Numbered from the stretch's first letter, positions 22,425 through 43,259 are shown. The stretch: DNA of 46,456 nucleotides from Candidatus Nomurabacteria bacterium GW2011_GWA1_36_15 (GCA_000991415.1 LBRM01000001.1:5232-51687); one strand, 5' to 3'. Translations and numbers: made by a program. The notes: generated by a model not told the origin, from the letters alone.

Positions 22425-22425
22425 C

Positions 22426-26281: not shown

Positions 26282-26282
26282 A

Positions 26283-26410
26283 CAGGGATGGGTTTTGCTG
26301 GCTTAAAACATAAAGCTCCTCGCCAGCGATAGTATTACTACTACCCATAGCCTTTCGGCTACGACCCATCCCTGAGTACTCTGACGAGGAGTTTAATATC
26401 AAGGATGGGT
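26283..26410 (-). promoter_or_regulatory. Structured RNA leader of the R-M operon (four-way junction with alternative pairing)
   Basis: Read on the minus strand. P1 is CAGGGATGGGT/ACCCATCCCTG (26364-26374 with 26283-26293) and ends 1 nt before the MTase ATG. Hairpins are TAGCC-GAAA-GGCTA (26348-26361), GTAGTA-GTAA-TACTAT (26329-26344) and GCTGGC/GCCAGC (26297-26327). An upstream ACCCATCC (26403-26410) can compete for the P1 5' strand. Confidence 0.55.
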
Positions 26411-26539
26411 ATTTTTTGCCATGCTCTAAATTGCTTTAAGGTTTAGGCTTTACTATTAAATTTTACTATTAAAGTATAACAGATTTTAGAAAAATAAAAA
26501 ATCAAAAAAGGGGCAATCTTATTCTTGGATAAAATAAAT

Positions 26540-27580
26540 TTATAATATACTCCTTAAATATTCTATAGATTTTTTCTTTATATCTTCAGTGATATCTGGT
26601 TGTACTATGCCATTCTGTCCTGTACTATTAGTTTTATGAGCTAAAGAACCTCTAATATCAAACATTGATATTCCTTCTATCTTATGTTCTTTGAGCCCAC
26701 TTACCGCATTTTCATCTGCTTTTTGGTATAATTGCAAAAAATAATCTGTGGATGAAACACCAAAAATAACATAATTTATTTCCGCATGAGACGAATTCCC
26801 TAAAACACCATTCAGCACTGAACCAATACATGTTGCACCATTACTATCTCTAAAAACATTATATATTTTTTGTCCAACTCCTAATTCTATAAAGTATGGG
26901 TCATGAGTAGTTAGAATTACATTAATATTATTTTTTGATATTTCAAATAGTGCATTATATAAACTTCTTTTTAATTTTGGGTGTAAATATATTTCTGGCT
27001 CTTCAAAAATAAGAAACAATTCGTTGTTTTGTGTATGAGCTTTTCCTAATTCTTGTAAGATGGCAACAATAATTAGTCTTTGCGTGCCTTGTCCAACTTC
27101 TTCTATTTTTAAATCACAACCTGTACCATAACTATCTTTTACAATAGAATTCAATATTTTTTTCGATATTTCATCTTTTATAACTTTTTTTACATCAACC
27201 TCATTCAATTTTTTAACTCCTAATTCTAGTTTTATGTTCTCAACATTAAAAGAATCAAAAGTTTTAGATATTTTATTTAAAAAGTCTTCTACATCTTTAT
27301 AATTTACATCTGGCAATTTATCTAAAGTAATATTTACTAATTTAGAAAAAGCATCTCTCATTGGGTCTTCTTTTGCAGCTGTTTTAAGATGTTCTTGTGC
27401 TTGTATTTTTTCCGCAGGTATATAAATAGTTTGTTCTTCAGGTAAGACACTTTTTAAGGCTTTCATAAGATTTGTCTTCCCAGCATTATTTTCACCAGCA
27501 AATATTGTGTATTTGCCTAGTTCAAATTTTATTTCTTTCGTAATACTACTATTCTCTTGTGGAGGTATTTTAATATTCAT
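26540..27580 (-). CDS. ABC/OLD-type (AAA_15/21-like) ATPase, stand-alone
   Basis: Walker A FAGENNAGKTN, signature-like GQGTQRL, Walker B LFLIFEEPEIYLHP, H-loop TTHD. No Toprim or nuclease motif was recognised in the ~100-aa C-terminus. Confidence 0.7.
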   Translation of the reverse strand: MNIKIPPQENSSITKEIKFELGKYTIFAGENNAGKTNLMKALKSVLPEEQTIYIPAEKIQAQEHLKTAAKEDPMRDAFSKLVNITLDKLPDVNYKDVEDFLNKISKTFDSFNVENIKLELGVKKLNEVDVKKVIKDEISKKILNSIVKDSYGTGCDLKIEEVGQGTQRLIIVAILQELGKAHTQNNELFLIFEEPEIYLHPKLKRSLYNALFEISKNNINVILTTHDPYFIELGVGQKIYNVFRDSNGATCIGSVLNGVLGNSSHAEINYVIFGVSSTDYFLQLYQKADENAVSGLKEHKIEGISMFDIRGSLAHKTNSTGQNGIVQPDITEDIKKKSIEYLRSIL

Positions 27581-28444: not shown

Positions 28445-30367
28445 TTAACTTTTTGTTTCTAATTTCGCATCTCCCCTCTTTTTTGGTATTATGCCATGAG
28501 CAGTGATTAATTTATCATACTCATCTTGCTCTAGAGTTTCAACTTCTATCAGTTTTTTAGCAATAGCATCTAATGCTTTCCTGTGTTCAGTTAAAACTTT
28601 CTCGGCTGATTTTATACCGTCATTTATAATCCTTGAAACTTCAGCGTCAACTTTCGTAGAAACTGTTTCGGAATATCCTTCTTCTCTAACTTCACCCCAA
28701 GCCAATTTCCCCCCTTCATTTCCTAAAGTAACTGGACCGATTAAATCAGACATCCCCCAACGGGTAACCATAGCGCGGGCTAAATTGGTGGCTACCTGCA
28801 AATCACTGGATGGACCGGTAGTAATATCGCCAAAAATCATTTTCTCCGTTACATACCCTCCCAGAGACATAGCAATATCATCTATGAATTCTTTTTTAGA
28901 TTGTAATCGTCTTTCTTCCAGAGGTAATTTTAAAGTATATCCTCCGGCATTACCACGAGCAATGATAGACACTTTATGCACTGGATCAGCATAAGGAAGC
29001 ACTGAAGCAACTAGGGCATGTCCTGCTTCATGATAAGCGGTAATTTCTTTTTCTTTTTTGGAAAGCAAATGGCTTTTCCTTTCAGGCCCAAGCATCACTT
29101 TTTCAATAGCCCGAATTAAATCGAATTGAAAAACTTTTTTGCGATTTTCTCGAGCTGCCAATATCGCTCCTTCATTCATTAAAGAATATAAATCAGCGCC
29201 AGAAAAACCGGGAGTTCGTTCGGCAATCAATTTTAAATTAACATCTTCAGCTAATGGTTTTAATCGCGCATGAATATTTAAAATCTCTTCACGATCTATT
29301 CGATCTGGTAAATCAAGCAATACCTTTCTGTCAAAACGTCCTGGACGAATAAGGGCTGGGTCAAGTACGTCTGGCCTATTGGTAGCAGCCATGACAATCA
29401 CTTTTTCATTGGGTTCAAAGCCATCCATTTCCACTAAAATTTGGTTTAGAGTTTGTTCACGTTCATCATTCCCTCCTCCAAATCCACCCCCGCGAGTCCT
29501 GCCTATTGCATCAAGTTCATCCATAAATACGATAGCTGGCGCTGCCTTTTTAGCCATTTTGAATAAGTCACGTACACGAGAGGCACCGACGCCCACGAAC
29601 ATTTCCACGAATTCACTTCCAGATAAGTGAAAAAAGGGCACTACTGCTTCTCCGGCCACTGCTCGCGCTAATAATGTCTTACCTGTGCCTGGAGGGCCAG
29701 TTAGAATTACTCCTTTGGGAATGCGAGCTCCAATATCTAAAAACTTTTTCGGGTTTTTCAAAAAATCAACAATTTCTTTTAGTTCTTCTTTGGCCTCTTT
29801 ACATCCAGCTACGTCTTTAAAAGTTACTTTGTTATTTTTATCATTCGGATCAGTGATACGAGCCTTGGATTGGCCAAAAGTAAACGCTTGCATACCTGCT
29901 CCTTTCACTTGGCGTGAAAGATACCAAAAGAAAAATAAAATAAAAATAATCGGCAAAAGGAAGGGTAACAAATTCATCAGCCAATATTTGAAACCGCTTT
30001 CATTCTTCACTTCTATATTTGTTGCGTTTAAGGCCTCTGGTTTCACTCCGTAATTAAAAAGGGTTTGGGAAAGAGAAGATTCCGTTTCTTTTTTAGAAGT
30101 TTTTATTTCGTCATTTTTAAAGGTGATCGTTAATTTTTCTCCTTCTACCAAAATATTTTTAACTTCCCCGGCTGAAACACTTTTAGCTAGGTCAGAAAGA
30201 GGAATTTCTGAGACACTTTTTGAAGTACCGGATATCATTAAATAAAAAGCGGTGATAGTAATAAAAATCAAAACAGCTCCAAGTATATTGCCAGAAAATT
30301 TAGGAATCTCTTGCTTTTTTTTGCCCTTATTTTTTATGTCTTTTTGATTTAAAAAGTTGAAATCCAT
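28445..30367 (-). CDS. ftsH: ATP-dependent zinc metalloprotease FtsH
   Basis: Two N-terminal TMs, AAA+ Walker A GPPGTGKT, Walker B FMDELD, SRH region and the HEAGHA zinc site. Confidence 0.95.
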
Positions 30368-30431
30368 GATTTGTTATCATAGCACAAAAAAGCCAAAAAT
30401 TAAAATTATTAAAATATGCTAAGATTAAAAC

Positions 30432-30878
30432 ATGGCTAATTATGCCGAAAATAGAAAAGCAAGATTTGATTATGAAATTTTAGGAAAATACGAAGCTGGT
30501 ATTGAGCTTTTAGGTATGGAAGTTAAATCTATTAGAAATGGAAAAATGTCTTTAGAAAGTGCTTTTGTGATAATCAGAGGAGGAGAAGCTTTTTTAATAA
30601 ATGTCAATATTCCACCTTATCAACCAAATAATGTACTAAAAGATTATAATCCGCTTCGCAATAGAAAACTTTTGATGACAAAAAAGGAAATAGCAATCTT
30701 AGCGGGTAGTGAAAAAAATAAAAGTTTGACAATAGTGCCGATTTCAGTGTACAATAAGGGTAGAAAAATCAAAGTAGAAATTGCTTTGGTTAAGGGTAAG
30801 AAAAAACAAGACAAACGTGAAAGCATAAAAAAACGCGAGACAGATCGCGAAATCAGGCGCGAGTATAAAGGACATTGA
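30432..30878 (+). CDS. smpB: SsrA-binding protein
   Basis: NRKARFDYEI...GIELLGMEVKS...LLMTKKEI signatures. It lies directly upstream of tmRNA. Confidence 0.9.
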   Translation: MANYAENRKARFDYEILGKYEAGIELLGMEVKSIRNGKMSLESAFVIIRGGEAFLINVNIPPYQPNNVLKDYNPLRNRKLLMTKKEIAILAGSEKNKSLTIVPISVYNKGRKIKVEIALVKGKKKQDKRESIKKRETDREIRREYKGH

Positions 30879-30889
30879 TAAAAAAATAT

Positions 30890-31286
30890 GGGGATGCAAG
30901 GCATAGACAGTGGGTCTAATGTAAAGATGCATGTCGAGCATGAACATAATCTCGTTAAAATTTGTTCAAATGTTAATTGCAAAATTAACTTCCAAAGCTA
31001 GAGCAATCGCTTCTCCTTACTTCGGTATGGCAGAATTTGCTTTCGCTTCAGTTTCCGCTTCGGCGTAAGCTGATGTCTTTCTCATAGACTTCCGATATAT
31101 GAGAGTTAGGCATAATATTATCGGGATAGTACCGATGCTTTCCTGACATCGGGACAAAATAAAGGGAATCGATTAAAAAATATTTTGCTCGTTTAATAAT
31201 TTTTTAATTTAAATCAAAAACGCGTCACACATGTGGATTTCTTTACAAAAACCTTCTGCACGGGGATTCAATTTCCCCCATCTCCA
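30890..31286 (+). ncRNA. ssrA: tmRNA (SsrA)
   Basis: 5' GGGGATG pairs with 3' CATCTCC (one G-U pair), T arm GGGGA-TTCAATT-TCCCC, discriminator A. An internal tag reading frame ends ...AEFAFASVSASA-TAA (stop at 31066-31068). It follows smpB. The resume codon was not determined. Confidence 0.85.
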
Positions 31287-32850
31287 CATCGTGGGGATTT
31301 GCGACTGCAAATTCCTCAAATAACCTTATGGTTGTTGGTATTTCATTGGTTCGATAACCTTCTTTTAGGCTATATGGTAATTTGGTATCGAAAATGAAGT
31401 AAAATAACCTTCTTTGCTCTAGTAAATCCAAATTAACCCATGCTTTATATGGGCTTTTTAGCATTGTAGTTGATTTATCTAAAGCGGTTCGATAAGGAAT
31501 GGCCATATCGGCTTTGATTTCTAATTTTTCATCCAAACTCTCTATTTCTTTGACAAAGTTTTCAATCTGTTCCTCGTATGTTTGACGAACTCTTTCAGAC
31601 TTAGCGGATATAGCCATCTTTGTTAGGGCAGATATCTCATTCGATAGTTTATCCTTACGAGTTTTATTTTGTTGATCCAGATTGTTATCTTTTTTTACTT
31701 CGTCATCCCACGCCCTATCAAACATTAAAGTTACCAATTCTCCCACTTCTGGCTTAAGATTATTTTTCTTTAGAATTTCTACAAATCCATCTTCAACATC
31801 TTTTTTTCTTGCACTCTTGCCATATGCTATGCATCCTTTAGTGTGGCAAATATAGTAAGCCCAGCGAAGGTTTTTCTTTACTTTTGTTGTCCATGCCGCC
31901 GTTAGTGGCTTATGGCAGTGAGTACATATTAGAAGATTTCTAAGTGGAAAATCTGAAGATACATCAACCCTAATGCGAACTCCAGAATCTTCTTTTTTCA
32001 ATCTTTTCTGAATAAGCTCAAATGTTTCAGTAGAAATAATTCCTTTATGTTTACCAAGACGACGTGTTACTCCCCACATTGGATATTCTATGTAACCCAT
32101 GTAAAATGGATCTTTAAGAATTTGTGTCAACTTATCAATATATTTTTCTGGTGATTGTTTTGTCCAAAACCCCTTCTCTACCAGAAATTTACAAACATCA
32201 ATTTTTCGGATAAAGATCCCCGTCGAAAAGTTTTCTAATGCTGGCTTTAATACTTCCAATCCTTCTTTTGTGGCAATTGATAACCTACCATGTGTAGGGT
32301 CTTTAGGCATTATATAACCTCTTTTTGCACCAAATGACCAATATCCTAGTTCAAGTCGTGCCTTTTGTTTTTGTATAACCTGCCTCCGATTTTGTTCACG
32401 TTCTAATTCCGCTTGTCCCGCAAACATGAGCTCTACAAATTTTCCTTCAGCACTTTCATCGAAGTTATAATTCAGACAAAGTAGTTTAACATCACGCATA
32501 TGGAATTCGGTTTTTAGTTCAAAGTGAAATTTTGCATCACGAGCAAATCTCTTTAAGTCATCAAAAACTACAAGAAATCTTTTATGTGGATTAGCATCAA
32601 TATGAGCTAATAACTCTCGCATCGCTGGTCTTTTCATAAAATCTCCGCCACCGCTATAGCTATCTGGGAAGGTCTTGTCATAAGGCACGCCTATACGTTC
32701 TAATTCTTTGATACAACGACTGTCTTGGCTCATTAATCCAGTCCCGTCTGTTTCTTGTCTTTTACTTGATACACGGGCGTATATAAGCCCAATACGACCT
32801 TCATAAGTTTTTTCTTCTTTATTTAGATTTATTTTTCGCGCTTTGCTCAT
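31243..32850 (-). CDS. Large serine recombinase (island integrase)
   Basis: IYARVSSKRQ catalytic motif, recombinase domain, zinc ribbon CTHCHKPL...ICHTKGC and a coiled-coil. The last 14 codons overlap the tmRNA T arm and acceptor (31243-31286). Confidence 0.85.
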   Translation of the reverse strand: MSKARKINLNKEEKTYEGRIGLIYARVSSKRQETDGTGLMSQDSRCIKELERIGVPYDKTFPDSYSGGGDFMKRPAMRELLAHIDANPHKRFLVVFDDLKRFARDAKFHFELKTEFHMRDVKLLCLNYNFDESAEGKFVELMFAGQAELEREQNRRQVIQKQKARLELGYWSFGAKRGYIMPKDPTHGRLSIATKEGLEVLKPALENFSTGIFIRKIDVCKFLVEKGFWTKQSPEKYIDKLTQILKDPFYMGYIEYPMWGVTRRLGKHKGIISTETFELIQKRLKKEDSGVRIRVDVSSDFPLRNLLICTHCHKPLTAAWTTKVKKNLRWAYYICHTKGCIAYGKSARKKDVEDGFVEILKKNNLKPEVGELVTLMFDRAWDDEVKKDNNLDQQNKTRKDKLSNEISALTKMAISAKSERVRQTYEEQIENFVKEIESLDEKLEIKADMAIPYRTALDKSTTMLKSPYKAWVNLDLLEQRRLFYFIFDTKLPYSLKEGYRTNEIPTTIRLFEEFAVANPHDVEMGEIESPCRRFL

Positions 32851-32992
32851 ATAGGTTGTTTTTATACTTTTCTATTTCACTTCTAATCACATTTTTACAA
32901 AACGATTCGAGAAACTGAAGTCGTGATTTGACCAACTCATCGGGGGATACAAAATCTTTAAGTATCCTTCTATATTCTTCAATCGTAACCAT
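32819..32992 (-). CDS. Candidate 57-aa helical protein (possible directionality factor), not in the ORF track
   Basis: Hand translation gives MVTIEEYRRILKDFVSPDELVKSRLQFLESFCKNVIRSEIEKYKNNLYEQSAKNKSK. It overlaps the recombinase start by 32 nt. No clear SD is present. Confidence 0.3.
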   Translation of the reverse strand: MVTIEEYRRILKDFVSPDELVKSRLQFLESFCKNVIRSEIEKYKNNLYEQSAKNKSK

Positions 32993-33079
32993 GTTCTATT
33001 TTGGTTGCGATACTGTCCCAGTTTTTGCTGATAACTCATATCTTGTTTTAATAAATGCCTCGGTTTTTCCGATAGCAAA

Positions 33080-33910
33080 CTAATTATCACTAACACGTCT
33101 ATTTTTTGTAATGCGTAATGATTGACGTTTCCCATTTTCGTATTTAGCTAAAATACTTCCATACATTCTATCTTCTCCATTTAGTTTCTGTATTTCTTGA
33201 GTCGCAGATCCGATTTTAGTTTCAGATGTTTCTATATCAGTGATTTTGTTTTTGCGGAATTTTATTTTGACTTCATCTTTTTCACCACTTCTTAAGTCAG
33301 ACAAAACTTCGGTTTCTGTATTTGATAGCCATATCAATGGTCGAGGGGGCATGGGCGTTAGACCTATTTCCTTAACGATGGATTTAAGAGAAATCAAGAG
33401 CATGTCGTTTGTCTTAAAATGTTTTTGTTTTGCTATTTCAATTTCTTCCGTACTTCCTATTCCACCAACTCCATTAGCTAATGCTACTATATATGGATCA
33501 TCATCACTGAAACATGCCCTTGCCACATAATATTCAAAGGCGGGATAAATTTCGTTATGATTTTTATCCCAATCAACTATACTAGCTTTCACTCGAGCAA
33601 TTTTATCTAAAGAAAAACCATAAGCACGAAATCGCTCAATGGCTTTTAGCCACACCAACTCAACAAAGGTAAATTTACGCCAGCCCATATTACCTTTTAG
33701 GCCCTTGGGCAGTAAATTATTTTTGTCCCAGTTATTTATAACTCTATACGGAATTTTTGTATCACCAACTGTGTATTTACGCATATTAAAATTTTCTTGC
33801 GTCTTCTTAAAATGTTCTCCAGAGAAGTACTCTTGAATGGCATGACGGAAGACGTTTCCTTTTGGGATTAAGTACTTGTCCGATGGATCGACTTTAACTT
33901 TTTTCCTCAT
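33080..33910 (-). CDS. MerR-like HTH protein (regulator or excisionase-like)
   Basis: YTVGDTKIPYRVINNWDKNNLLP...WRKFTFVELVWLKAIERFRAYGFSLDKI fits the MerR-type HTH + wing + helix pattern. A unique C-terminal domain follows. Confidence 0.6.
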   Translation of the reverse strand: MRKKVKVDPSDKYLIPKGNVFRHAIQEYFSGEHFKKTQENFNMRKYTVGDTKIPYRVINNWDKNNLLPKGLKGNMGWRKFTFVELVWLKAIERFRAYGFSLDKIARVKASIVDWDKNHNEIYPAFEYYVARACFSDDDPYIVALANGVGGIGSTEEIEIAKQKHFKTNDMLLISLKSIVKEIGLTPMPPRPLIWLSNTETEVLSDLRSGEKDEVKIKFRKNKITDIETSETKIGSATQEIQKLNGEDRMYGSILAKYENGKRQSLRITKNRRVSDN

Positions 33911-33915
33911 TTATG

Positions 33916-33937
33916 AATTATACATCAATGTATAATT
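33916..33937. promoter_or_regulatory. Perfect 10+10 palindrome (operator candidate) overlapping -10-like boxes
   Basis: AATTATACAT-CA-ATGTATAATT lies 6 nt upstream of the MerR-like ATG. It contains TATAAT on both strands. Confidence 0.55.
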
Positions 33938-33990
33938 TAAGCAAGTCTATAATGTGGATAACTCTAACGACTGGATCGCATATTTTTGGC

Positions 33991-34019
33991 TTCAAATTCT
34001 TCCAATTTTGTGTTACAAT
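33991..34019 (+). promoter_or_regulatory. Sigma70-type promoter for the rightward island transcript
   Basis: TTCAAA (33991-33996), a 17-nt spacer, then TACAAT (34014-34019) with an upstream TG (extended -10). Confidence 0.6.
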
Positions 34020-34020
34020 C

Positions 34021-34216
34021 GGGTTACAAGTTAATAAGTGGCCTAACCCTTAAAAATATTTGAGGTATGGTTGTAAAGCCTGCAACGGAGCAAAAAACCC
34101 ATCATTGGGGGCTACCGTTGCAGGTCTTACGTCGAAAGATGTATGGATAGCGAAAGCTATCACCCTAGTGGTGGGCTTTTTGCGTTTCATTACTAATTTA
34201 GACTAAATAAATTTAT
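34021..34216 (+). promoter_or_regulatory. Roughly 190-nt structured 5' leader RNA
   Basis: GGGTTA/TAACCC (34021-34049); a 10-bp helix CCTGCAACGG/CCGTTGCAGG (34079-34124); and two adjacent GAAA-tetraloop hairpins (34130-34141 and 34146-34161). No ORF is present and no known riboswitch was recognised. Confidence 0.45.
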
Positions 34217-35194
34217 ATGAAAAAATATCTCGCAATTTTGTTTTTAATAGCATTCACTGTTCCATCAGTTGCCTTGGCTTCTTGGTGGAATCCTTTTAGT
34301 TGGTTTAATAACTGGAGTTTTAATAAAAAAGAAGCGATACCACAGGTACAGGTAGAAGTAGAGAAAACTACTCCATCTGCAGACAATTCGGCAATCGTTA
34401 TTAAAACAGAGCAAGATATTGCTAAACAAGAAACGAAAGAACAAGTAAGAAATAACACTGTTTCGGTTTCACCTGATGTCTTAATTTGCAATGGGAAAGA
34501 ATGGTCGAAATGTCCTGCTGGACATAACTTTTATTGTCCTGCACAAGGCGATGCACAGTGTGTACCACAACTTTCTGTCTTAACAAATAATCAAGTTAAT
34601 ACTTCCGTAAAGCAAGATCCCCCTCCATCATTAGCACCACAACAGACAAGTCAAGAAACTCAAAAGACTTCGCCATCTAATACTATTTTGTGTAATGGGA
34701 AATACTGGACACCTTGTTCGAGTGGACGTGAGCTTATCTGCCCCGCCAACGGTGATGCATATTGCAAGGTTCAATTGACGCAAGTACAACTACAACGTGC
34801 TACAAATAATAAAAATAATTTTATTCAGCGTTTTGATATTTTGTTGAAAGACTACCGAGACTTTCGAGATATACAATCAAAGGAGATTGATGCTATGAAC
34901 CAGATGCTCGTGGAGTTAGGAAAGTATACTGGAGCAATAACGGAGTTGAAAGTTACCCTTACTAAGCAAAGGAGGGAGCGATTGATTAAGAGTTTGAGCT
35001 CATTTAATCAGCTTATTACTGCTAGGGAACGAATGAAATCAGATTACCAAAATCTTGATGTTGAAATGTATCTCGAAAATAACTTTGAGGATGCTTTACA
35101 AGATGGATCTTCGTTCCTTAATAAAACGAAGACTCAATTCGAGCAAGATAAAGCGGTATATTACGACTATATCTCAAAACAAATTCACATATGA
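34217..35194 (+). CDS. Secreted protein with two Cys-rich repeats and a coiled-coil C-terminus
   Basis: Signal peptide MKKYLAILFLIAFTVPSVALA. Repeats are ICNGKEWSKCPAGHNFYCPAQGDAQCV and LCNGKYWTPCSSGRELICPANGDAYCK. Confidence 0.65.
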   Translation: MKKYLAILFLIAFTVPSVALASWWNPFSWFNNWSFNKKEAIPQVQVEVEKTTPSADNSAIVIKTEQDIAKQETKEQVRNNTVSVSPDVLICNGKEWSKCPAGHNFYCPAQGDAQCVPQLSVLTNNQVNTSVKQDPPPSLAPQQTSQETQKTSPSNTILCNGKYWTPCSSGRELICPANGDAYCKVQLTQVQLQRATNNKNNFIQRFDILLKDYRDFRDIQSKEIDAMNQMLVELGKYTGAITELKVTLTKQRRERLIKSLSSFNQLITARERMKSDYQNLDVEMYLENNFEDALQDGSSFLNKTKTQFEQDKAVYYDYISKQIHI

Positions 35195-35258
35195 AAAATA
35201 AAAAACAGCGTCTCTACTTAGATTACTCCTCTAAAATTAATAGCTTAAGATAACTAAA

Positions 35259-35495
35259 ATGCCAAAATTACTAGGATTCGTTATTGTTGCAGTGATCGCG
35301 TACTTTATAGGGTATAGCAGTGGTATTGGCAATCAGTCGCCAAAGTATGGAGATAGCGGTTTCCCAAAAAACTGCAGAGCATTAATATCGGACAACTTGA
35401 AAGGCTTTGCAATCGATGAATATACAGCCGAAGAAGCTCTTTATTCAATAGAAAGAAACTGTGGTCCTAATGGCTATATTTGGGACGAACGATAA
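35259..35495 (+). CDS. Small membrane-anchored protein
   Basis: N-terminal TM (LLGFVIVAVIAYFIGY) followed by a ~55-aa soluble domain with two Cys. Confidence 0.45.
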   Translation: MPKLLGFVIVAVIAYFIGYSSGIGNQSPKYGDSGFPKNCRALISDNLKGFAIDEYTAEEALYSIERNCGPNGYIWDER

Positions 35496-35654
35496 AAATT
35501 AGTGATATGGAGGCCTTATTTATTGCTGTAATCATTTGGATAATATTTTCTCGAATAGTGGATGGAAAATACCCCTGGAATTGAACTGTCTGAAACTTTT
35601 ATAGGAGGTCAGTATTGTCATTGCAAAAATCCAAAGTCGTGTTAGGTTTACTAT

Positions 35655-36419
35655 ATGATCCCCAAACAAAGTACCATTGACGAGATTATTACGAGTGAAA
35701 GTGAACTTTTTTATGTTGCAGAAAAAAAGTACGGTGATTATTTTGTAAATTCCTTTAAATTTAATGGTTTATTACAAAACTTCACAGTGTCCGTAGATGC
35801 AAGTAGACATGTTTTCGCTGCATTTTTATCGCAAGTAAGAAAACATCTAACATTGGCTTTATTTTCCGCTGTAAGGTTACATCACACACAGGCAATGATG
35901 AATCTTAGGCAAGTGCTAGAAGCAGGGGCATTTGCTGCATACGCTATAGCCAACCCTGATAAAGAAAATTTTGTCGAGAAAAGAGAGGATGGGTATCTAG
36001 ATGCCCCCCAGGGGCTGATAGTACAAAGATACAAATGGTTGGAAGAAAATTACCCAGAAGGTCAAAAACCCATGAAGCAATTTAAGGATATCATAAACCA
36101 AACCACTGCACACTCTAACCTTATTTATGCTTATAACAACTTCTATTTTAACGAAGAAACTGGTAAATTTGAGACGCCTTTTTTTGATATTGGAAACGAG
36201 CGTCTAGTTAAAACAGATTTATGGCAAATAGGAAATGTTGCTATGGGATTAATGGATTTGTTTTATGGAGTAGATAAAAAAATAGGGTCAATAAAATTTG
36301 TTGACAACTTTATTCCTCACCTAAAAAATCTGGAGGTTGAGAATAAGAGGCTAGGTAAAGAAATGAAAACGATTCTTGATGAGAGAATAAAAAAACACAC
36401 CATTAATAAACCTAAATAA
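35655..36419 (+). CDS. Hypothetical helical protein (possibly a DUF5677/AbiV-like fold)
   Basis: All-helical composition. The LRQVLEAGAFAAYAI segment resembles that family, but the assignment is weak. Confidence 0.45.
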   Translation: MIPKQSTIDEIITSESELFYVAEKKYGDYFVNSFKFNGLLQNFTVSVDASRHVFAAFLSQVRKHLTLALFSAVRLHHTQAMMNLRQVLEAGAFAAYAIANPDKENFVEKREDGYLDAPQGLIVQRYKWLEENYPEGQKPMKQFKDIINQTTAHSNLIYAYNNFYFNEETGKFETPFFDIGNERLVKTDLWQIGNVAMGLMDLFYGVDKKIGSIKFVDNFIPHLKNLEVENKRLGKEMKTILDERIKKHTINKPK

Positions 36420-36420
36420 T

Positions 36421-36873
36421 TCAGTACTTACTTCCAATAGTTAAAAGTTTACTTTCTCGTGCAATTTTTCTTTCTTGGTAACTCGCTGGTCTATAGGGTA
36501 ACTGGCAACATTTTCGGCAGAGAGGAGGCTCAACTTCGGTGTAAAAGTATAGGTATTTAATTCTTCGATTACACCTACTACAGATAAAATAAAAAAGTAC
36601 CCCTCTGTCTTTACCTAAGTTAGACGGAACATAATCAACTTCCTGAAAATGCCAATAAGGATTGCCTCGTAGGTCATTAACAGATTTGAATTTCGTTTTT
36701 TCAGGTATATTCATTAATGCTTTTACACGAAAAGCTTCAAACTCGTTGTTAAATTTTATTTTCTTATTTTCAAGTTGCTCTAGCTCACGCACAAAAGACC
36801 TGACATAGTCAAAAATGTCTATTCTGCGAGTAATTTCTGGCTTTCCTATGTCTTCGTACCTTGAGTTATACAT
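36421..36873 (-). CDS. Hypothetical zinc-ribbon protein
   Basis: CSRCNRR...CRKCC (CxxC-17-CxxC). It is convergent with the previous ORF, with a 1-nt gap. Confidence 0.5.
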   Translation of the reverse strand: MYNSRYEDIGKPEITRRIDIFDYVRSFVRELEQLENKKIKFNNEFEAFRVKALMNIPEKTKFKSVNDLRGNPYWHFQEVDYVPSNLGKDRGVLFYFICSRCNRRIKYLYFYTEVEPPLCRKCCQLPYRPASYQERKIARESKLLTIGSKY

Positions 36874-37085
36874 AATCGCTAATAATCTCTAAGGATCATT
36901 GGTTTGTTTTTATAAAATGATAGTATCTACTACTATAATTAACTCAATACTCTACTTGTGCTTCTTATTAAAATTAATGGCTAGGCATTTTCAAGCACCT
37001 TTTGAAGATTTGGGCTGGTTTGGTAATAGTCCCAAAATCGAGAAAGGTAGTTTTTTAAGGAGTTCAATGTTTTACCCACTGTGTC

Positions 37086-37175
37086 CACCACTTCGCCTCA
37101 CTTGCTACGCTTTGTTCGGCTTCGCGGTGCAGGCACACAAAAACCATTTATGTAATTTATTATTGCGAAGTGGTG
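37086..37175. repeat. GC-rich element closed by an 11-bp inverted repeat, upstream of the GIY-YIG gene
   Basis: CACCACTTCGC (37086-37096) pairs with GCGAAGTGGTG (37165-37175). It is followed by GTCCC...GGGAC (37174-37201). Local GC is well above the surroundings. Confidence 0.5.
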
Positions 37176-37223
37176 TCCCGCATAGCTTTAGCGGCGTGGG
37201 ACTTTGTTATATAATATATTAAT

Positions 37224-37463
37224 ATGTTTTATACTTATATTTTAAGAAGCTCTATTGATGGGACAAAATATATTGGTCATACATCAGACTTGAAAAAAAG
37301 ATTACAAAATCATAACCAGCATCAATCAAAATACACTTCGACAAAAGCACCATATATTTTAATTTGGTATTGTGCGTTTTTGACTAAAGATAAAGCTATA
37401 AATTTTGAGAAATATTTAAAAAGCTCGTCAGGTTTCGCTTTTTCAAACAAAAGATTAATTTAA
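37224..37463 (+). CDS. Small GIY-YIG nuclease-superfamily protein (paralogue of 1805-2065)
   Basis: FYTYILRS...KYIGHTSDLKKRLQNHN follows the same GIY-YIG pattern. Confidence 0.7.
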   Translation: MFYTYILRSSIDGTKYIGHTSDLKKRLQNHNQHQSKYTSTKAPYILIWYCAFLTKDKAINFEKYLKSSSGFAFSNKRLI

Positions 37464-37507
37464 AAAAATGGCGAAGAGATAAAAAAGTTGCTAGTATAAG
37501 GATAATT

Positions 37508-40495
37508 ATGATTTTGGTAAAAAAGATATTGAAATTAAGAGTGCTAATCTTTGTTTTCGCTTTTCTGGCTTTTGCTCCCAGCGCTTTTGCCGAAACCACT
37601 GTATCGGGCGTTATAGATACGAATACTACCTGGACATTGGCGAACAGCCCGTATGTCGTGGATAACGATTTGTCGATTGACTCCGCGACTCTAACCATTG
37701 AGCCGGGTGTTGTCGTAAAGGTGGCTCCTTTCGCTAGTATTGCGCTAGACCAAGACGGGACCATTTCTGCCATTGGTACACCCACAAATAAAATTTACTT
37801 TACCAGTTTGGTAGATGATGAAATAGGCGGAGATACAAATGGTGATGGGAATGCTACTATCCCCGATCTGATAACAGGAGAATATTTCTGGAGTGGAATT
37901 TACTCTTACGGGGGTAATTTAGGCATTGTGCTTAGCAACGCTGTGGTTCGATATGCCGAGCGAGGTTTTTCACTTAGAGAAGCAAGTGATGTCCAGATAG
38001 CGGATTCAATTTTTGAAAAAAATTTCATAGGCATTGAGGACCAAGGTAAAAATTCGGTGAATATCTCAAATAGTGAAATTATGAATAATAACGCTGGTAT
38101 TTCTATTTCACAAATAGACAGCGAGCCAAATTCAACTTATGCCGTGAGTGGTCTTTCTATCCATGGAAATAATTACTCCGGAGTAAGCTATTATATTTTA
38201 CCGCCCTTGGCAAAAAAGAATTCTAATCCATTTATTTGGTTTGCTAATTTATTTAAAACCGAAAAAGCCCTAGCACAAACTATAATTGACTTTACCGTAG
38301 ATTTTAGAAATACCTGGTGGGGTGATGCGTCTGGACCACAAAGCGTTGATAACCCAACCGGTCTAGGCGATGTGATTGATGACAATGGCTTCCTCAATCC
38401 TAAAGTTTTATTTGACCCGTGGCTTACGACGGATCCGTTTATAATTACACCACCACTTCGTAATCCAGTCTTAATAGTGCCAGGAGTTTTAGGTACAAAT
38501 ATATTCAAAGGAGCGGAAAAATTATGGCTTGACCTTCTTCGTAATTTTACTGACATAAGTGATCAATTCATGGATCCTTTACAGTTTGACAATAGCCTAC
38601 TCCCACTAGATACAAGTTTAGATTTAGGAAATGTTATAAGTAGAGAAACGGTTAATATCGGATTGGGGAACATTGTGGTATCAGATTATACTTTTAGTTT
38701 AATTAAAGAATTTGAAGATCAAGGATACACCCAAGGAGCAACCGCAAACGACAATCTATTCCTCTTCCCCTATGATTGGCGATACGGAGTAAGTGTAAAC
38801 AATATCAACGAGTTAAAACAAAAAATTCAAGATATTAAAACTCAAACAAGTAGTGACGAAGTTGATGTTGTAGCTCACAGCACTGGCGGTTTGTTGGTTA
38901 AAAAATATGTAATGGACAATCCTGTGAATAATTATATCGGCAAAGCGGTTTTTGTTGGGGTGCCAAATACCGGTGCGCCAAAAGCTATCAAAGTTTTATT
39001 GCAAGGAGACGGGTTTGGAATTCCATGGCTCGCGGATGGAGAAATGAAAAAAATTTCAAAAAATTTACCCGTTGTATACGATCTTTCACCAAGTCAGGAA
39101 TATTACAATCAAAAAGGAAGCTATGTAAAAATTATCAATCAAGGCTTTTTTAGTTCTACAACTCAAAATTTAGATTTTAATCAAGCCAATAGCTTCCTTA
39201 CTACTGACCATCAATTAAATTCTCAAGCGCTCGCCAATGCACAGAGTTTACACACTGCAAACTTTGATAATTTTGATTTGCGAACAGCTGGTGTAGATTT
39301 ATATAGCATTGCTGGATGTAAAGCGGGTACCATAGGTAAAATCGTAGAACGTAGGGTGCAAACTATTTTAGGGGGCATAAGCACAGGGTATGATCAACCA
39401 GAAAGAGTCCCAGGAGATGGCACTGTACCACTTGAAAGTGCCACTAACCTGCCAATTAATTCGGAAAATAAGTATTATGCGCTAGAATCTGATCATGGGA
39501 AAATGTTGAGTCAAGATAATATTAGACAACAAATCATGAATATTATTTCTGGCAGCAGTCTTGCTGTTGACAGTTCAAAAATTTCTCAAGATATTTCTGA
39601 ATGCAAATTAAATGGTAAAGCAATCTCAGTTTTTAGTCCCTTAGATATTGAGATTACAGATCAAGATGGAAATCATGCTGGACTTGTTGCTGGGGGAGTT
39701 GAAAATAATATCCCAAATGCAAGTTTTGATATTATGGGTGAGCATAAGTTTGTCTATCTGCCAGATGATGAAGGTCAAACTTATGAAATTGAAGTTAATG
39801 GCACTGGGAATGGAACATTTACATTAAAAAATGAAAAAATTACAGATAACCAAATCATTCAAACTGAAGTTTTTAGTGATATTCCGGTTACGACAAATCT
39901 AACAGGAAATTTGAATTTGGGAGATTCCTCGACATTGTCTATTGACCAAAATGGCGATGGTAACGAAGAAACGATTTTTCCGGACGGCAGTGAGTTGTTC
40001 CTAAATCAGCTTCTTGCCCTGATTAAGGAAAAAATTCAATCGCTTAATGCGAAAGATAAACTAAAGCAAAGTCTTCTAAAGAAGATAGGTAATTTGGAGA
40101 AAAAAATTGAGAAAAAGAAAGAACAAAATTCAAAAATCCTTACAAAGTTTAAAAATAAAATCACCAAACAAGAAATGAAAGGTAAAATAAACACAACTGA
40201 TGCTAACAACATTATTGAGTTGCTGGACCTTTTAGAAGCGCAAGCGGAAGACATTGCGCTTGACCCTGCTATTCTCTCACAGCTTAAAATCAAGATACAA
40301 ACACTTGGTATCAAACAAAATCAAAAAAATGATATGCTCAAGCGTGTTGAAAAACTTGAGAACAAACAAAGGCTCGTTAAAACACTTTCCAATCTGATAG
40401 TAAACATTACTAAAAAGGGGCAAAAAGGAAAAATCTCAGCTACAGATGCGCAAGAACTGTTGAATCTTTTGGGGCAGATTGAAAGTGTGATATAA
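37508..40495 (+). CDS. Secreted multidomain protein: beta-helix + LCAT/PGAP1-like alpha/beta-hydrolase (lipase/esterase) + Ig-like region + repeated coiled-coil tail
   Basis: Signal peptide ...APSAFA|ET and parallel beta-helix repeats ending in NTWWGDASGP. The lipase motifs are PVLIVPGVLGT, YDWRYG, nucleophile elbow VVAHSTGG and PGDGTVPLESA. The C-terminal repeats are KGKINTTDANNIIELLDLL and KGKISATDAQELLNLL. Confidence 0.75.
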   Translation: MILVKKILKLRVLIFVFAFLAFAPSAFAETTVSGVIDTNTTWTLANSPYVVDNDLSIDSATLTIEPGVVVKVAPFASIALDQDGTISAIGTPTNKIYFTSLVDDEIGGDTNGDGNATIPDLITGEYFWSGIYSYGGNLGIVLSNAVVRYAERGFSLREASDVQIADSIFEKNFIGIEDQGKNSVNISNSEIMNNNAGISISQIDSEPNSTYAVSGLSIHGNNYSGVSYYILPPLAKKNSNPFIWFANLFKTEKALAQTIIDFTVDFRNTWWGDASGPQSVDNPTGLGDVIDDNGFLNPKVLFDPWLTTDPFIITPPLRNPVLIVPGVLGTNIFKGAEKLWLDLLRNFTDISDQFMDPLQFDNSLLPLDTSLDLGNVISRETVNIGLGNIVVSDYTFSLIKEFEDQGYTQGATANDNLFLFPYDWRYGVSVNNINELKQKIQDIKTQTSSDEVDVVAHSTGGLLVKKYVMDNPVNNYIGKAVFVGVPNTGAPKAIKVLLQGDGFGIPWLADGEMKKISKNLPVVYDLSPSQEYYNQKGSYVKIINQGFFSSTTQNLDFNQANSFLTTDHQLNSQALANAQSLHTANFDNFDLRTAGVDLYSIAGCKAGTIGKIVERRVQTILGGISTGYDQPERVPGDGTVPLESATNLPINSENKYYALESDHGKMLSQDNIRQQIMNIISGSSLAVDSSKISQDISECKLNGKAISVFSPLDIEITDQDGNHAGLVAGGVENNIPNASFDIMGEHKFVYLPDDEGQTYEIEVNGTGNGTFTLKNEKITDNQIIQTEVFSDIPVTTNLTGNLNLGDSSTLSIDQNGDGNEETIFPDGSELFLNQLLALIKEKIQSLNAKDKLKQSLLKKIGNLEKKIEKKKEQNSKILTKFKNKITKQEMKGKINTTDANNIIELLDLLEAQAEDIALDPAILSQLKIKIQTLGIKQNQKNDMLKRVEKLENKQRLVKTLSNLIVNITKKGQKGKISATDAQELLNLLGQIESVI

Positions 40496-40551
40496 TAAAC
40501 GAGTGTATGTTTCGTGATTTATTAACTAAATTAATTTTTACTGAATAGTTT

Positions 40552-40839
40552 ATGAAAAGGAAATTTATACTTAGTAGTTTTTTGCTCATCTTAACTTACT
40601 TAATACCACTTTCTATATTGAGCCAATATCAAAACTCCCCGAACCTTGATTCGGTCCAAAAAATTACTTTTGTTACGCTATTCTTAGGTTCAACTGTCAT
40701 AATTTACTTAAATTGGAGGAAGGGAGAGAATACTGAATGGCTTCGTTGGACTTTAAAAATTCTTGGTATCTTAGGTTTTATTTACTCAGGAGTTATAATG
40801 GCATTATTATTTCTATTTAGGCATGGGATAGGTTTTTAG
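40552..40839 (+). CDS. Small three-TM membrane protein
   Basis: Three hydrophobic segments. It lies directly downstream of the lipase-like gene. Confidence 0.5.
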   Translation: MKRKFILSSFLLILTYLIPLSILSQYQNSPNLDSVQKITFVTLFLGSTVIIYLNWRKGENTEWLRWTLKILGILGFIYSGVIMALLFLFRHGIGF

Positions 40840-40867
40840 TTTAAAATGGATAATTCTTCTAGCGAGA

Positions 40868-41206
40868 ATGGTTTTTCCTAGTAAAAATTTAATGGAAGTA
40901 AAATCAAGACAACAAATTCTTGAAAGACGAAAAGAAATTGAGCAGGAATTTGTGGACATGCTTAAGAAAACTAAAAGCCCTTTTTCTCTAGAACATATTA
41001 AGGATATTATTTTTCACGAGGAAGACAACGACGACATGCAAAAAGTTATTGCTATATTTGATCGTGGTGGAGATGTTTCAGAATTAAGCACTATTCTTGA
41101 ATTGGTAAGCGATGCTTGGAATTATTTTCCACACAAAGTTATCAATGGTTTATCGCCAGCCGAAAAGCTTTTTGAGTATCAAAACAAGCAGGATAAAAAG
41201 AAATAA
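40868..41206 (+). CDS. Small acidic cytoplasmic protein, hypothetical
   Basis: 112-aa ORF with no recognised motif. Confidence 0.45.
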   Translation: MVFPSKNLMEVKSRQQILERRKEIEQEFVDMLKKTKSPFSLEHIKDIIFHEEDNDDMQKVIAIFDRGGDVSELSTILELVSDAWNYFPHKVINGLSPAEKLFEYQNKQDKKK

Positions 41207-41209
41207 TTT

Positions 41210-41365
41210 ATGAAAAAAGACAAAAAAATTATTATTGAGGTTCGAGCTATTATTTTACACGAAGGAAAATTATTGGAGCGTAGTAATGAGTTTCAAGTTT
41301 TGGTGGCACGCGGAGCGTGCGCATTAGTTCATTTGATTTTCGAAATAAGTTCGTGCAAAGGATAG
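41210..41365 (+). pseudogene. Truncated NUDIX-hydrolase-like gene fragment
   Basis: Hand translation MKKDKKIIIEVRAIILHEGKLLE resembles a NUDIX N-terminal strand. The sequence then diverges into the GC hairpin region and stops at 51 aa with no NUDIX box. Confidence 0.35.
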
Positions 41366-41396
41366 TAATACTCCACATAAATGTTAAAATATAATA

Positions 41397-42717
41397 ATGT
41401 CGATAAAACCTGAACTAAATGTTTCGGGATATAGAGGAATCTGGGGACAAACTTTAAATGAAGAAGTAGTTTCAAAATACACTCGAGCTTTTACTCATTT
41501 CGCTAAAGAAGATTCTAAAAAAGAAAAACTAACTATTCTAATTGGACGAGATGGACGTGAAAGTGGTCCTGAAATAAAAAAAATAATTATTAAAGAATTA
41601 GAAAATTTGGGAGTTGTTGTTATTGATGGTGATATTTTGCCGACACCGACAATCTTATTTGCTGTCCGAAAACATAAATATGATGGTGCTATTATTATTA
41701 CTGCCTCTCATAATCCAATAGAGTACAATGGCTTAAAATTTGTTAATAATAAAGCACTTTTTACCATCAAAGAGGAAGCAGAAAAAATAAAAAGATATTA
41801 TGACCATTCCTAACTTCACAAAAGAACACGCTGACCAAATTTTGACCCATATTAATGTAGAAGCGATTCGCGCCAGAAAGTTTAAAATAGCTGTCGATAT
41901 GATAAACGCTTCTGCTTGCGTAATGGATCCATATCTTTTTGAAAAACTTGGCGTGGAATTGATTCCTTTAAACAACATCCCTAATGGAAAATTTGCTCAT
42001 AAACCTGAACCTCTTAAAGAAAATCTGAGTGATATTGCCAATCTAGTTAAAAAGTCAAAAGCAGATCTTGGCTTTGTGCATGATCCTGATGCTGACAGAC
42101 TGGTGATTATAAACGAAAATGGAGAAGTAATTTCAGAGGAATATTCTTTGGCCCTGGGGGTAGAAAATGTCTTATCTAAAAATCCTGGCGAAAAAATCGT
42201 GATAAATTTATCTACTTCCCAAATGAGTGCAGATATTGCTAAAAAATACAATAGTGAATATTTCCGTACAAAAATCGGAGAAGGATATGTTGTCGAAGGA
42301 ATTTTATCTCATAATGCCATTATTGGTGGCGAAGGAAATGGTGGAGTTATATATCCCAAAATTAACACCGTGCGCGATAGTTTTACCAGTTTATCTCTTA
42401 TTCTTGAACTTCTGGCAGAGAGAAAGCAAACGGTAAATGAATGCATTGCCACCTTACCAAAATATTTTATCAAGAAAGACAAGTGGCCGGCCGCTGGAAA
42501 AAATTTGAATGAAATATATTCAAGATTAGAATCTCATTTCAAAGATGCAAAAACAGACAAGCAAGATGGCTTGCGTCTTGATTTTCTTAATAGTTCTTGG
42601 ATCCATTTAAGACCATCCAATACTGAACCAATTATCAGACTTTTCGGTGAAGCAAAAGATGAAAAATCTATAGAATCATTATTCAATGAAGTTAAGTTGA
42701 CTTTAGACGGAAAATAA
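41397..42717 (+). pseudogene. Alpha-D-phosphohexomutase (GlmM/PMM-PGM type) split by a +1 frameshift near 41789-41813
   Basis: ORF 41397-41813 carries the TASHNP phosphoserine loop. ORF 41800-42717 carries the DPDADR Mg site and the GEGNGG sugar loop. The second frame is closed upstream by TAA at 41788-41790, so the shift lies within about 24 nt that include an A5 run. Confidence 0.7.
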
Positions 42718-42755
42718 GCTAAGCTATTCTTAGTTTAAAGTATCAATATATCCAA

Positions 42756-43259
42756 TTGCGAGAAAGAATAAACAACCAAATACGAGCAAAAGAACTTCGG
42801 GTGATAGATAGTGAAGGTCAAAATCTCGGTGTTTTAAGTATAAAAGAGGCGCTAGAACTGGCCCAAAGCAAGGGTACAGATTTGATTGAGATATCTCCCA
42901 ATACTAATCCTCCAGTCGGTAAGATAATGGATTTTGGAAAATATCAGTACGAAATAAATAAAAAATTAAAGAAAGCCAAGGCAGGTTCTAAACCAACGGA
43001 GACAAAATCAATTCAGATAAAAATAGGCACTGGGGATCATGATTTAGGACTGAAAGCTAAAACCGCTTCAAAATGGTTAAAAGAAGGGCATAGAATCAAA
43101 GTTGAACTTTTTCTTGCTGGACGCGCAAAATATATGGATGAAAAATTTCTAAAAGAACGACTAGATCGAGTATTGCATTTGATTACCGAAAATTATAAAG
43201 TTTCTGATTCATATAAGAGAAGTCCTAAGGGTTTAATTACAACCATAGAAAAGAAGTAG
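42756..43259 (+). CDS. infC: Translation initiation factor IF-3
   Basis: INNQIRAKELRVIDSEGQNLGV..., KIMDFGKYQYE and the C-terminal domain. The start is an apparent non-AUG (TTG). Confidence 0.9.
   Translation: MRERINNQIRAKELRVIDSEGQNLGVLSIKEALELAQSKGTDLIEISPNTNPPVGKIMDFGKYQYEINKKLKKAKAGSKPTETKSIQIKIGTGDHDLGLKAKTASKWLKEGHRIKVELFLAGRAKYMDEKFLKERLDRVLHLITENYKVSDSYKRSPKGLITTIEKK

Follow-up and report, generated by a model that had tools for sequence, protein, structure and literature searches.

A serine recombinase gene predicted to be split by its own integration, within a probable stack of insertions at the ssrA 3' end of a Candidatus Nomurabacteria genome

The window analyzed here is a 46,456-nucleotide stretch (LBRM01000001.1:5232-51687) of a Candidatus Nomurabacteria genome from groundwater (GW2011_GWA1_36_15), in which the transfer-messenger RNA (tmRNA) gene ssrA is separated from the phosphohexomutase gene (PGM) by a block of accessory genes. 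Comparison with related loci indicates that two insertions are stacked in this block (31290-41378), at the ssrA 3' end. The ssrA-proximal part, island A (31288-37088, 5,801 bp), appears to be an intact integrative element from a family widespread in Patescibacteria. The attP site of its large serine recombinase (LSR), named LSR2, is predicted to lie inside the LSR2 gene itself; integration would swap the C-terminus of the protein for antisense-tmRNA codons, and the full 556-aa recombinase would be encoded only by the excised circle. The distal part, segment B (37089-41378, ~4.3 kb), is read, less securely than the rest, as the decayed remnant of an earlier insertion. We assign a probability of about 0.8 to this overall reading, i.e., stacked insertions, an island A with attP inside its own recombinase gene, and an older remnant in segment B.

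The junction between ssrA and PGM

The left core flank of the block consists of smpB (30432..30878, plus strand; Pfam SmpB, 1.2e-52) and ssrA (30890..31289, plus strand), which was not called by ARAGORN and was found by Rfam (RF00023, 122.5 bits vs. a gathering score of 47). The 3' acceptor strand of the tmRNA, CATCTCC, ends at 31285 and pairs with the 5' GGGGAUG, a G3:U pair included; position 31286 holds the discriminator A, and the three bases after it are CAT, so that CCA is not encoded. The right core flank starts with PGM (41397..42717, plus strand; Pfam PGM_PMM_I to IV), which comprises two overlapping open reading frames (ORFs) and is followed by infC, rpmI, and rplT. The Pfam and Rfam assignments thus agree with the core genes named on both sides by an earlier, sequence-only reading of this DNA. 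The same reading had pointed to an 8-bp direct repeat, and CTCCACAT indeed has exactly two copies in the window, at 31282-31289 and at 41371-41378, the second one 18 nt upstream of the PGM start. Taken alone this repeat is not significant (two or more copies in 16 of 100 shuffles), and a search for long direct repeats around the block gave none.

A scan of the GTDB species-representative genomes for SmpB yielded 80 Nomurabacteria loci, onto which the proteins of the window were mapped. In the closest species of this set, L007 (SmpB 89% identical), ssrA is directly followed by PGM, which is the empty site that the sequence-only reading had proposed to look for. The L007 junction (…CCCCCATCTCCACA/AAAAATGTTAAAATATAGTGATG, the slash marking the joint and the right side leading into PGM) equals the left flank of the window joined to its right flank at the repeat; the junctions of the window itself read …CATCTCCACAT/CGTGGGG… on the left and …GTAATACTCCACAT/AAATGTTAAAATATAATAATG on the right. 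Because the empty site joins the flanks at the repeat, the boundaries are more than chance, and the 10,089 bp at 31290-41378 appear as an insertion relative to L007 with edges exactly at the repeat and, as had been suggested, at the exact 3' end of ssrA.

Island A and segment B

We compared the window with the genomic context of eight LSR2 homologues (L095 and L097-L103). Six of the eight LSR2-type loci examined abut ssrA and one abuts a tRNA-Arg gene. The ssrA-abutting homologues are L095, L098, L100, L101, and L102; L097, whose recombinase is 83% identical, abuts tRNA-Arg(gcg), L099 has no adjoining tRNA or tmRNA gene (tDNA), and L103 is a contig in the attP form. All integrated copies share a left junction, in which the tDNA end …TCCAC is followed by ATCnnnGGnnTTTGnAG…GCAAATTCCTCAAATA, and the eight elements have in common a right end of ~90 nt (…AAGGTAGTyTTTTAAGGAGTTCAATGTTTTACCCACTnnnTCCAC). 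With both strands searched, this conserved right end is found in the window only at 37004-37088, and the alignment of the right ends places the attR core of island A (GTCCAC), and thereby its right boundary, at 37083..37088 on the plus strand. In L030 and L039, ssrA leads straight into a sequence that can be aligned base for base with the window from 37089 onward (CACTTCGCC…, followed by a GIY-YIG gene), and for this reason we place the joining of ssrA with segment B first and the arrival of island A later. Island A would have inserted between …CTCCAC and CACTTCGCC when segment B already sat between ssrA and PGM.

According to the sequence-only reading, the ~10 kb are one island (31290-41378), which LSR2 would mobilize as a unit with the CTCCACAT repeats as attL and attR. 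The whole block is absent from L007 and is bounded by the 8-bp repeat, the ORF in such a composite circle would still close after 13 codons (DVEYYYPLHELISKIK-stop), and a similar YPLHE tail follows the recombinase of L104. We nevertheless regard a single island as improbable, since the cognate right end of the family and the tail exon described below lie at 37004-37088 and not at 41378, the right end at 41306-41378 lacks the conserved arm, and the sequence beyond 37088 comes immediately after ssrA in L030 and L039 and must therefore have been chromosomal flank when island A inserted. The LSR2 element would thus end at 37088, and the repeat copy at 41371-41378 would belong to the older segment, which has no recombinase. 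In favor of the overall reading, L095 carries an element with an 84% identical recombinase placed cleanly between ssrA and PGM (attR …CTAACTCCACA/AAAAATGTTAAAATA), with the same module of LSR, MerR-like gene, and LOOT RNA and with different cargo.

A recombinase gene divided between the two ends of island A

In the integrated form, LSR2 is a 535-aa protein (31243..32850, minus strand) recognized by Pfam and PHROG matches and by its invariant residues. It contains the domains Resolvase (PF00239, 6.7e-18) and Recombinase (PF07508, 1.1e-7), as well as a Zn_ribbon_recom match (PF13408, 3e-4) that at 21.5 bits is under the Pfam cut-off of 25.3, and its residues 5-488 match the phrog_95 integrase (3.2e-53). 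An alignment of 50 homologues shows invariant catalytic residues (Y24, R26, S28, Q32, D97, D98, R101, and R104) and invariant zinc-ribbon cysteines (C309, C312, C335, and C340). The body of the protein was modelled confidently by AlphaFold2 (mean predicted local distance difference test score, pLDDT, of 82), with a long coiled-coil insertion in the zinc ribbon (helices 367-415 and 419-444, pLDDT 83-94); a PDB sequence search with LSR2 matched only the catalytic domain. The gene overlaps ssrA by 47 nt when the Rfam end is used and by 44 nt up to the discriminator, and it ends …NPHDV-EMGEIESPCRRFL, where the last 13 residues are antisense-tmRNA codons. The large serine recombinase at the ssrA-proximal edge, and its ORF running into the tmRNA, had been recognized in the sequence-only reading; this overlap is real, but the end within ssrA would not be the native C-terminus.

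The native last 34 codons of LSR2 are found at 36984-37085, at the far end of island A, as part of a detached 3' end of the gene (36981..37088, minus strand; V-DTVGKTLNSLKNYLSRFWDYYQTSPNLQKVLENA-stop) that is also the P arm of attP. When the right end is joined to the left end as in a circle, the recombinase ORF is extended in frame by 34-35 codons in all eight elements and reaches 553-558 aa; the circular form of the window has 556 aa and ends …NPHDV-DTVGKTLNSLKNYLSRFWDYYQTSPNLQKVLENA. The tails follow the consensus DV[DE]xxxxxLNxLKxYLxRFWxYYxxSxxLQKxLxNx-stop, in which the conserved D-V is encoded by the att core itself (gATGTG), and the stop position is shared by seven elements and shifted downstream by one codon in the remaining one. 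Within the 105 nt that precede the core, the tail frame alone is open in all sequences (no stops, vs. 6-26 in the five other frames), and it combines the highest amino-acid identity (0.55 at a nucleotide identity of 0.66) with the most variable third positions. In the closest pairs (window-L097 and window-L095), the tail has proportions of synonymous differences (pS) of 0.33-0.46 and of nonsynonymous differences (pN) of 0.07-0.10, i.e., pN/pS of 0.15-0.3; purifying selection is thereby shown to act on the detached tail. We also considered the right end as a plus-strand gene and rejected this candidate, because stops interrupt each of the other frames. The tail is joined directly to the recombinase gene in L103 (P0048, 570 aa), where cargo rather than tDNA comes next, and also in P0248, P0123, and others. 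When 1.84 billion representatives were searched, the majority of the top 150 alignments ended at query residue 526-528, which is the att core.

The database contains more than 1,890 homologues of LSR2 at E <= 1e-20. The best 120, with the window's own sequence excepted, are 51-84% identical, and every source name among them that bears a bacterial lineage points to Patescibacteria. Of these 120 closest proteins, 81 end in VEMxxIEP…, the antisense of CATCTCCAC plus the tmRNA T-arm, at least 21 have the terminus VDPxGxEP…, which is the 3' half of a tRNA gene read in antisense, and one has a tail of the circular type. LSR2 therefore appears to represent a tDNA-targeting LSR clade that is common in bacteria of the candidate phyla radiation (CPR). 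When metagenome contigs were scanned with LSR2, all matches were identical copies. As a separate observation, two LSR2-family genes, in L099 (P0023) and L104 (P0054), end at the att core beside sequence other than tDNA (DVEHL-stop and DVVKSYPLHEP…, respectively); these may be tandem arrays, attP forms, or secondary-site insertions.

Attachment sites and the predicted crossover

The attL core of island A, CTCCAC(AT), is located at 31282..31289 on the plus strand, as delimited by the attL/attR identities of the window, L095, L098, and L097. The identity covers TCCAC in island A, CTCCACA in L095, and TCCAC in L098, and the left junction of L097 at tRNA-Arg reads …GGGACCAC/AT. These identities of 5-8 bp, which fit the short att core anticipated by the sequence-only reading, intersect in CCAC (31284-31287). 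Among nine reconstructed attP sites, the best dyad axis falls at the CC of TCCAC, with half of the positions complementary vs. a quarter expected. Thus, the crossover probably takes place within CCAC, at the CC (31284-31285) that closes the acceptor stem, and would for this reason leave the tmRNA whole. The chromosomal half-sites beyond the core, namely the PGM leader, the infC leader, the ftsH side, and the GIY-YIG module, are mutually unrelated. We infer that the site is recognized mainly via its tDNA half, an assumption under which insertion next to an earlier insert, and hence stacking, would be possible.

Proposed mechanism and points of doubt

We propose that the attP used by LSR2, situated within the 3' end of the LSR2 gene, is recombined with an attB made up of the final bases of the tmRNA gene (…TCCAC) or, in some relatives, of a tRNA gene. 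Integration would carry the last 34 codons to the far end of the island (36984-37085), and the integrated copy would receive the 13-aa antisense-tmRNA tail in exchange. The integration module would consist of the recombinase, a MerR-like helix-turn-helix (HTH) gene, a small ORF, and the divergent LOOT RNA, with cargo that varies between elements.

What the swap does to the protein can be read in two ways. It may be neutral compaction, with attP placed in the gene just to save space, both C-termini equivalent, and the read-through into the tmRNA an annotation curiosity. A trivial version of the layout, plain read-through, is seen in the second recombinase of the window, LSR1, at tRNA-Ser; the AlphaFold2 confidence for the tail is only moderate; and the comparable overlap of the Dehalococcoides recombinase DsiB has been held to be probably non-functional (McMurdie et al., 2011, PMC3146451). 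We see this as a possibility to be reckoned with but lean against it, because the 34-aa tail is under purifying selection, its length and stop are conserved across elements only 54-58% identical overall, and recognizably similar tails are retained in more distant members of the clade. This conservation implies that the tail is used in at least one state and that the integrated protein differs from the circular one by the loss of a conserved segment. The swap may alternatively alter the activity or the directionality of the recombinase. In serine integrases, a directionality factor is needed for excision. A more specific proposal, which we consider tentative and rather unlikely as a whole, is a state switch: the full 556-aa form made from the circle would favor integration, the tail-swapped integrated form, with altered activity, stability, or directionality, would need the MerR-like protein or the small ORF for excision, and LOOT would be a dedicated regulator or cofactor.

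Several observations weigh against the overall reading. Segment B has no associated recombinase, and its origin is deduced from one att-like core plus a recurrent end module. The different attB sites have B' half-sites that bear no relation to each other, which is unusual for characterized serine integrases. The tail is modelled by AlphaFold2 as two helices at pLDDT 52-68 behind a low-confidence linker, with three alignment rows covering it, and owing to this low score the model offers no structural evidence for the tail as an integral part of a domain. No circular (attP) junction and no junction lacking island A were seen in the assembled contigs of four groundwater or soil runs in which this population is present, although such contigs drop rare variants; island A may still be mobile. 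Candidate joints in those contigs had short sides of 20-24 nt and were judged to be spurious or to come from related taxa. Finally, the composition gives no sign of foreign origin: the GC content of the block is 0.355 vs. 0.347 in the core, and the tetranucleotide correlation between block and core is 0.96, core chunks of 5 kb themselves spanning 0.956-0.987. The comparison of GC and k-mer profiles suggested in the sequence-only reading was therefore uninformative, and the search for a circular junction that it also proposed came back empty in the assembled contigs.

A composition indistinguishable from the core, and the presence of the block in all contigs of the window's species, would also be expected if the genes between ssrA and PGM were ancestral and had been precisely deleted in L007, the recombinase being domesticated or of the resolvase type. 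Such a history is highly improbable, as the content of this junction varies widely among related species and always lies 3' of ssrA, even where smpB-ssrA is inverted; the same integration module is combined with unrelated cargo in L095, L098, L100, L101, and L102; conserved att arms flank each element; and a contig in the attP form exists.

Integration module and the LOOT RNA

The MerR-like HTH protein of island A (33080..33910, minus strand, 276 aa; Pfam MerR_1, 7.3e-8) has homologues beside the recombinase in L095, L097, L100, and L102, and its gene is present in five of the eight elements. The small ORF between this gene and LSR2 (32887..33135, minus strand, 82 aa) is 67-74% conserved in L095 and L097 and occurs in three of the eight. 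The former product is a candidate regulator or recombination directionality factor, and the latter a candidate accessory or directionality factor.

A LOOT small RNA gene lies next to the MerR-LSR operon and points away from it (34040..34161, plus strand; Rfam RF03000, 86.6 bits vs. a gathering score of 46.4). A scan for promoters and terminators indicated a promoter-like site ~20 nt upstream (33991-34019) and a terminator-like hairpin at 34157-34174, and the fold has a z-score of -5.0. We built our own LOOT covariance model from five copies and searched 1.47 Mb of related loci. LOOT is present in seven of the eight LSR2-type elements, LSR1-like elements have none, and elsewhere in the 1.47 Mb only a second copy within the window was found (26328-26449, minus strand; 77.7 bits vs. 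the gathering score of 46.4). As far as the literature that we searched goes, the association of LOOT with LSR2-type elements has not been described before. The second copy is located in a 3-kb block (24601-27580) between the 3' end of tRNA-Ile(tat) and recG, which encodes an AAA_15/OLD-GajA-like ATPase, an N6_N4 methyltransferase, and a 217-aa ORF; this block is absent from L008, where tRNA-Ile and recG are only ~0.5 kb apart. No canonical LSR2-type right end was found near the second copy, and the block looks like a recombinase-less remnant island.

Cargo of island A and gene content of segment B

The cargo of island A comprises p325 (34217-35194, plus strand; secreted, Cys-rich), p78 (35259-35495, plus strand), p254 (35655-36419, plus strand), and the CxxC protein p150 (36421-36873, minus strand). 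This region (34217..36873) gave no Pfam, PHROG, or PADLOC matches and has no homologues in other LSR2-type elements. Across the block, PHROGs matches were limited to the integrase and a weak GIY-YIG homing endonuclease, with no capsid, tail, terminase, or lysis genes; no Pfam domains of a relaxase, coupling protein, or type IV secretion system were found in 31290-41378; and PADLOC detected no defence system within the block. Island A is thus neither a prophage nor a conjugative or mobilizable element.

Segment B, which is absent from L007, starts with the GIY-YIG module (37089..37463, plus strand; ORF 37224-37463, Pfam GIY-YIG, 1.2e-17) that is colinear with L030 and L039. Next comes a gene for a secreted 995-aa protein resembling a beta-helix/LCAT-like lipase (37508..40495, plus strand; Pfam LCAT, 6.2e-19, and Beta_helix), an 88% homologue of which is found in L022 in a variable block adjacent to tDNA, 3' of tRNA-Ile. 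Three further plus-strand entries of the ORF list, the membrane protein p95 (40552-40839), p112 (40868-41206), and p51 (41210-41365), have no family matches. The right end of the segment (41306..41378, plus strand) is a recurrent module of ~70 nt that ends in the att-like core CTCCACAT. It is 97% identical to an inverted copy in L055 (11488-11558), beside a second copy of the tmRNA 3' end, and 96% identical to L085 12102-12147; a homologous stretch follows the recombinase core in L104 (10420-10500). In metagenome contigs the module has 4-5 times the genome depth and is accompanied by contig breaks.

Two side observations concern these sequences. The ~70-nt module (41306-41376), which contains a GC-rich hairpin (GCACGCGGAGCGTGC), adjoins att-like TCCAC cores at four sites with unrelated surroundings and occurs in either orientation, and it is open on both strands, encoding the p51 C-terminus on one and the YPLHE tail on the other. 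Stand-alone GIY-YIG proteins of 79-86 aa often lie directly beside tRNA or tmRNA genes: at 1805-2065 (minus strand) and 37224-37463 (plus strand) in the window, and in L008, L098, L010, L051, and L086. Their placements are upstream of tRNA-Ser and tRNA-Ile, between smpB and ssrA, and just 3' of ssrA, with a conserved flank (CTTCGC…).

LSR1 and other recombinases linked to tDNA

At the left of the window, LSR1 (238-1800, plus strand) overlaps tRNA-Ser(gga) (1734-1819, minus strand) by 67 nt, in keeping with the similar recombinase-tRNA collision that the sequence-only reading had noticed there. The LSR1 island extends off the window's left; its cargo includes a reverse transcriptase (RVT_1), two DNA methyltransferases, and an HTH gene. 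In L087 (4404-11478), the 15-nt direct repeat ATTTTTTGGCGGGAA occurs twice, 7,060 bp apart. One ATTTTTTGGCGGGAA copy forms the LSR1 att core, 19-33 nt beyond the tRNA 3' end and thus outside the tRNA, and the ORF of the circular form stops one codon past this core. Because the native stop lies one codon beyond the core, the 28-codon tRNA overlap of LSR1 is plain read-through.

LSR1-like genes, which are 38-43% identical to LSR1 and only 21-25% to LSR2, are also found right after ssrA, overlapping it by 12-22 nt in L058, L075, L083, and L085 and by ~70 nt in L065. Close relatives of LSR1 overlap tRNA-Ser(gct) in L008 and L037. Two distant lineages of serine recombinases thus appear to use tDNA 3' ends in this group. 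A search for direct repeats bounding the LSR1-like island in L065 gave nothing convincing. In the same locus (10466-10843), the 3' acceptor strand of the tmRNA is apparently replaced at the overlap with the LSR1-like gene (…GGGGTTCGAATCCCCAT/AATAGAAC); this may reflect a disrupted tmRNA or a misplaced Rfam end call. The L008 gene (16325-18061, 78% identical) is preceded on its upstream side by its 3' end (aa 461-512) repeated in inverse orientation and thus sits between inverted att-bearing repeats beside tRNA-Ser(gct). A further tRNA-Ser with the loop UUACUAA (anticodon ACU) lies at 22338-22425 (plus strand) beside a normal tRNA-Ser(GCU) and is conserved in L008, L037, and L095; a serine tRNA with A34 is unusual in bacteria.

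Other features of the ssrA and PGM flanks

The smpB-ssrA cassette is inverted relative to the ftsH and PGM/infC flanks in about half of the 80 related species (L007-L086; window 28445-43259). An inverted copy of the tmRNA 3' end (TGGTGGAGATG) is present ~50-170 nt downstream of ssrA in L037, L049, and L055. The two PGM ORFs (41397-41813 and 41800-42717) overlap by 14 nt (…YYDHS-stop/MTIPNF…) and divide the protein between domain I and domains II-IV. The same split is kept in L007, L008, and other species, and L095 and L100 have a single ORF of 466-477 aa with a linker; the split thus seems to be a conserved feature of the gene and not a sequencing error.

Comparison with known systems

The closest precedent is provided by the Dehalococcoides ssrA islands, in which a 540-aa serine recombinase, DsiB, is encoded on the reverse strand next to attL, and whose authors raised the idea of a gene that attains full function only in circular form (McMurdie et al., 2011, PMC3146451). 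Both systems have an LSR of ~540 aa convergent with ssrA, an ORF that crosses attL into the ssrA 3' end with no stop inside the island, and tandem stacks of small, non-conjugative elements with variable cargo 3' of ssrA. However, the Dehalococcoides islands insert in the tmRNA T-loop with a 20-bp repeat, whereas island A sits at the last acceptor-stem bases with an identity of 5-8 bp. Their six-gene module includes DsiA (a second, small serine recombinase), a RecF-like protein, ParB, and Mom; island A has none of these, Pfam finding no second resolvase in 31290-37088, and carries the MerR-like gene and LOOT instead. A detached conserved tail exon, shown here for island A, is not reported for the Dehalococcoides islands. 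A serine-integrase island at ssrA, called unusual in the sequence-only reading, is indeed rare in the literature, but DsiB sets a precedent and the clade is common in CPR genomes.

With the large serine integrases of phages (phiC31, Bxb1, A118, TP901-1, and SPbeta), LSR2 shares the order of resolvase, recombinase, and zinc ribbon with coiled coil, as well as short att sites with minimal attP/attB identity. To our knowledge, the characterized phage enzymes have protein-coding or intergenic targets, and their genes are not split by integration. An attP in coding sequence, where integration changes the protein, is known from SSV1-type fusellovirus integrases and from the integration-dependent immunity of mycobacteriophages. 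These systems use tyrosine recombinases; the SSV1 gene is split near its 5' part, and in the mycobacteriophages the repressor, not the integrase, is truncated.

The tDNA islands of tyrosine integrases (Islander/TIGER) resemble island A in their integration at the tDNA 3' end, the functional state of the gene, the adjoining integrase, and ssrA as a preferred target; they depend on another recombinase superfamily, and island A lacks their long displaced tDNA fragment. Set against the Islander definition, island A has an intact tDNA and an integrase, but its displaced copy is only 5-8 bp and its integrase is of the serine type. Islander held that only tyrosine recombinases are known to target tDNAs (2015, PMC4383910), and tRNA targets are not mentioned in a later survey (Durrant et al., 2022, PMC10083194). 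Our literature search found no paper combining CPR/Patescibacteria with serine recombinases in this sense, and the split-gene architecture is, within the literature searched, undescribed before.

Implications for CPR bacteria

Serine integrases are usually described at protein-coding or intergenic sites, and tRNA and tmRNA genes are left to tyrosine integrases. The LSR2 clade does the opposite, with more than 100 of the 120 closest homologues reading into tDNA, and it would be a main source of gene flux beside ssrA in CPR bacteria, whose mobile elements are poorly known. The orphan LOOT RNA gains a concrete genomic setting. Protein catalogues appear to hold mostly chimeric ORFs of the integrated form, so that prospecting for genome engineering needs the native gene to be rebuilt across attP, and the antisense-tDNA tails (VEMxGIEP and VDPxGxEP) offer a quick marker of integration state and target. 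The predicted split of the recombinase gene turns the old speculation about DsiB into a testable case; if the proposed switch is true, it would constitute a self-sensing serine integrase system specialized on tmRNA and tRNA genes across the CPR.

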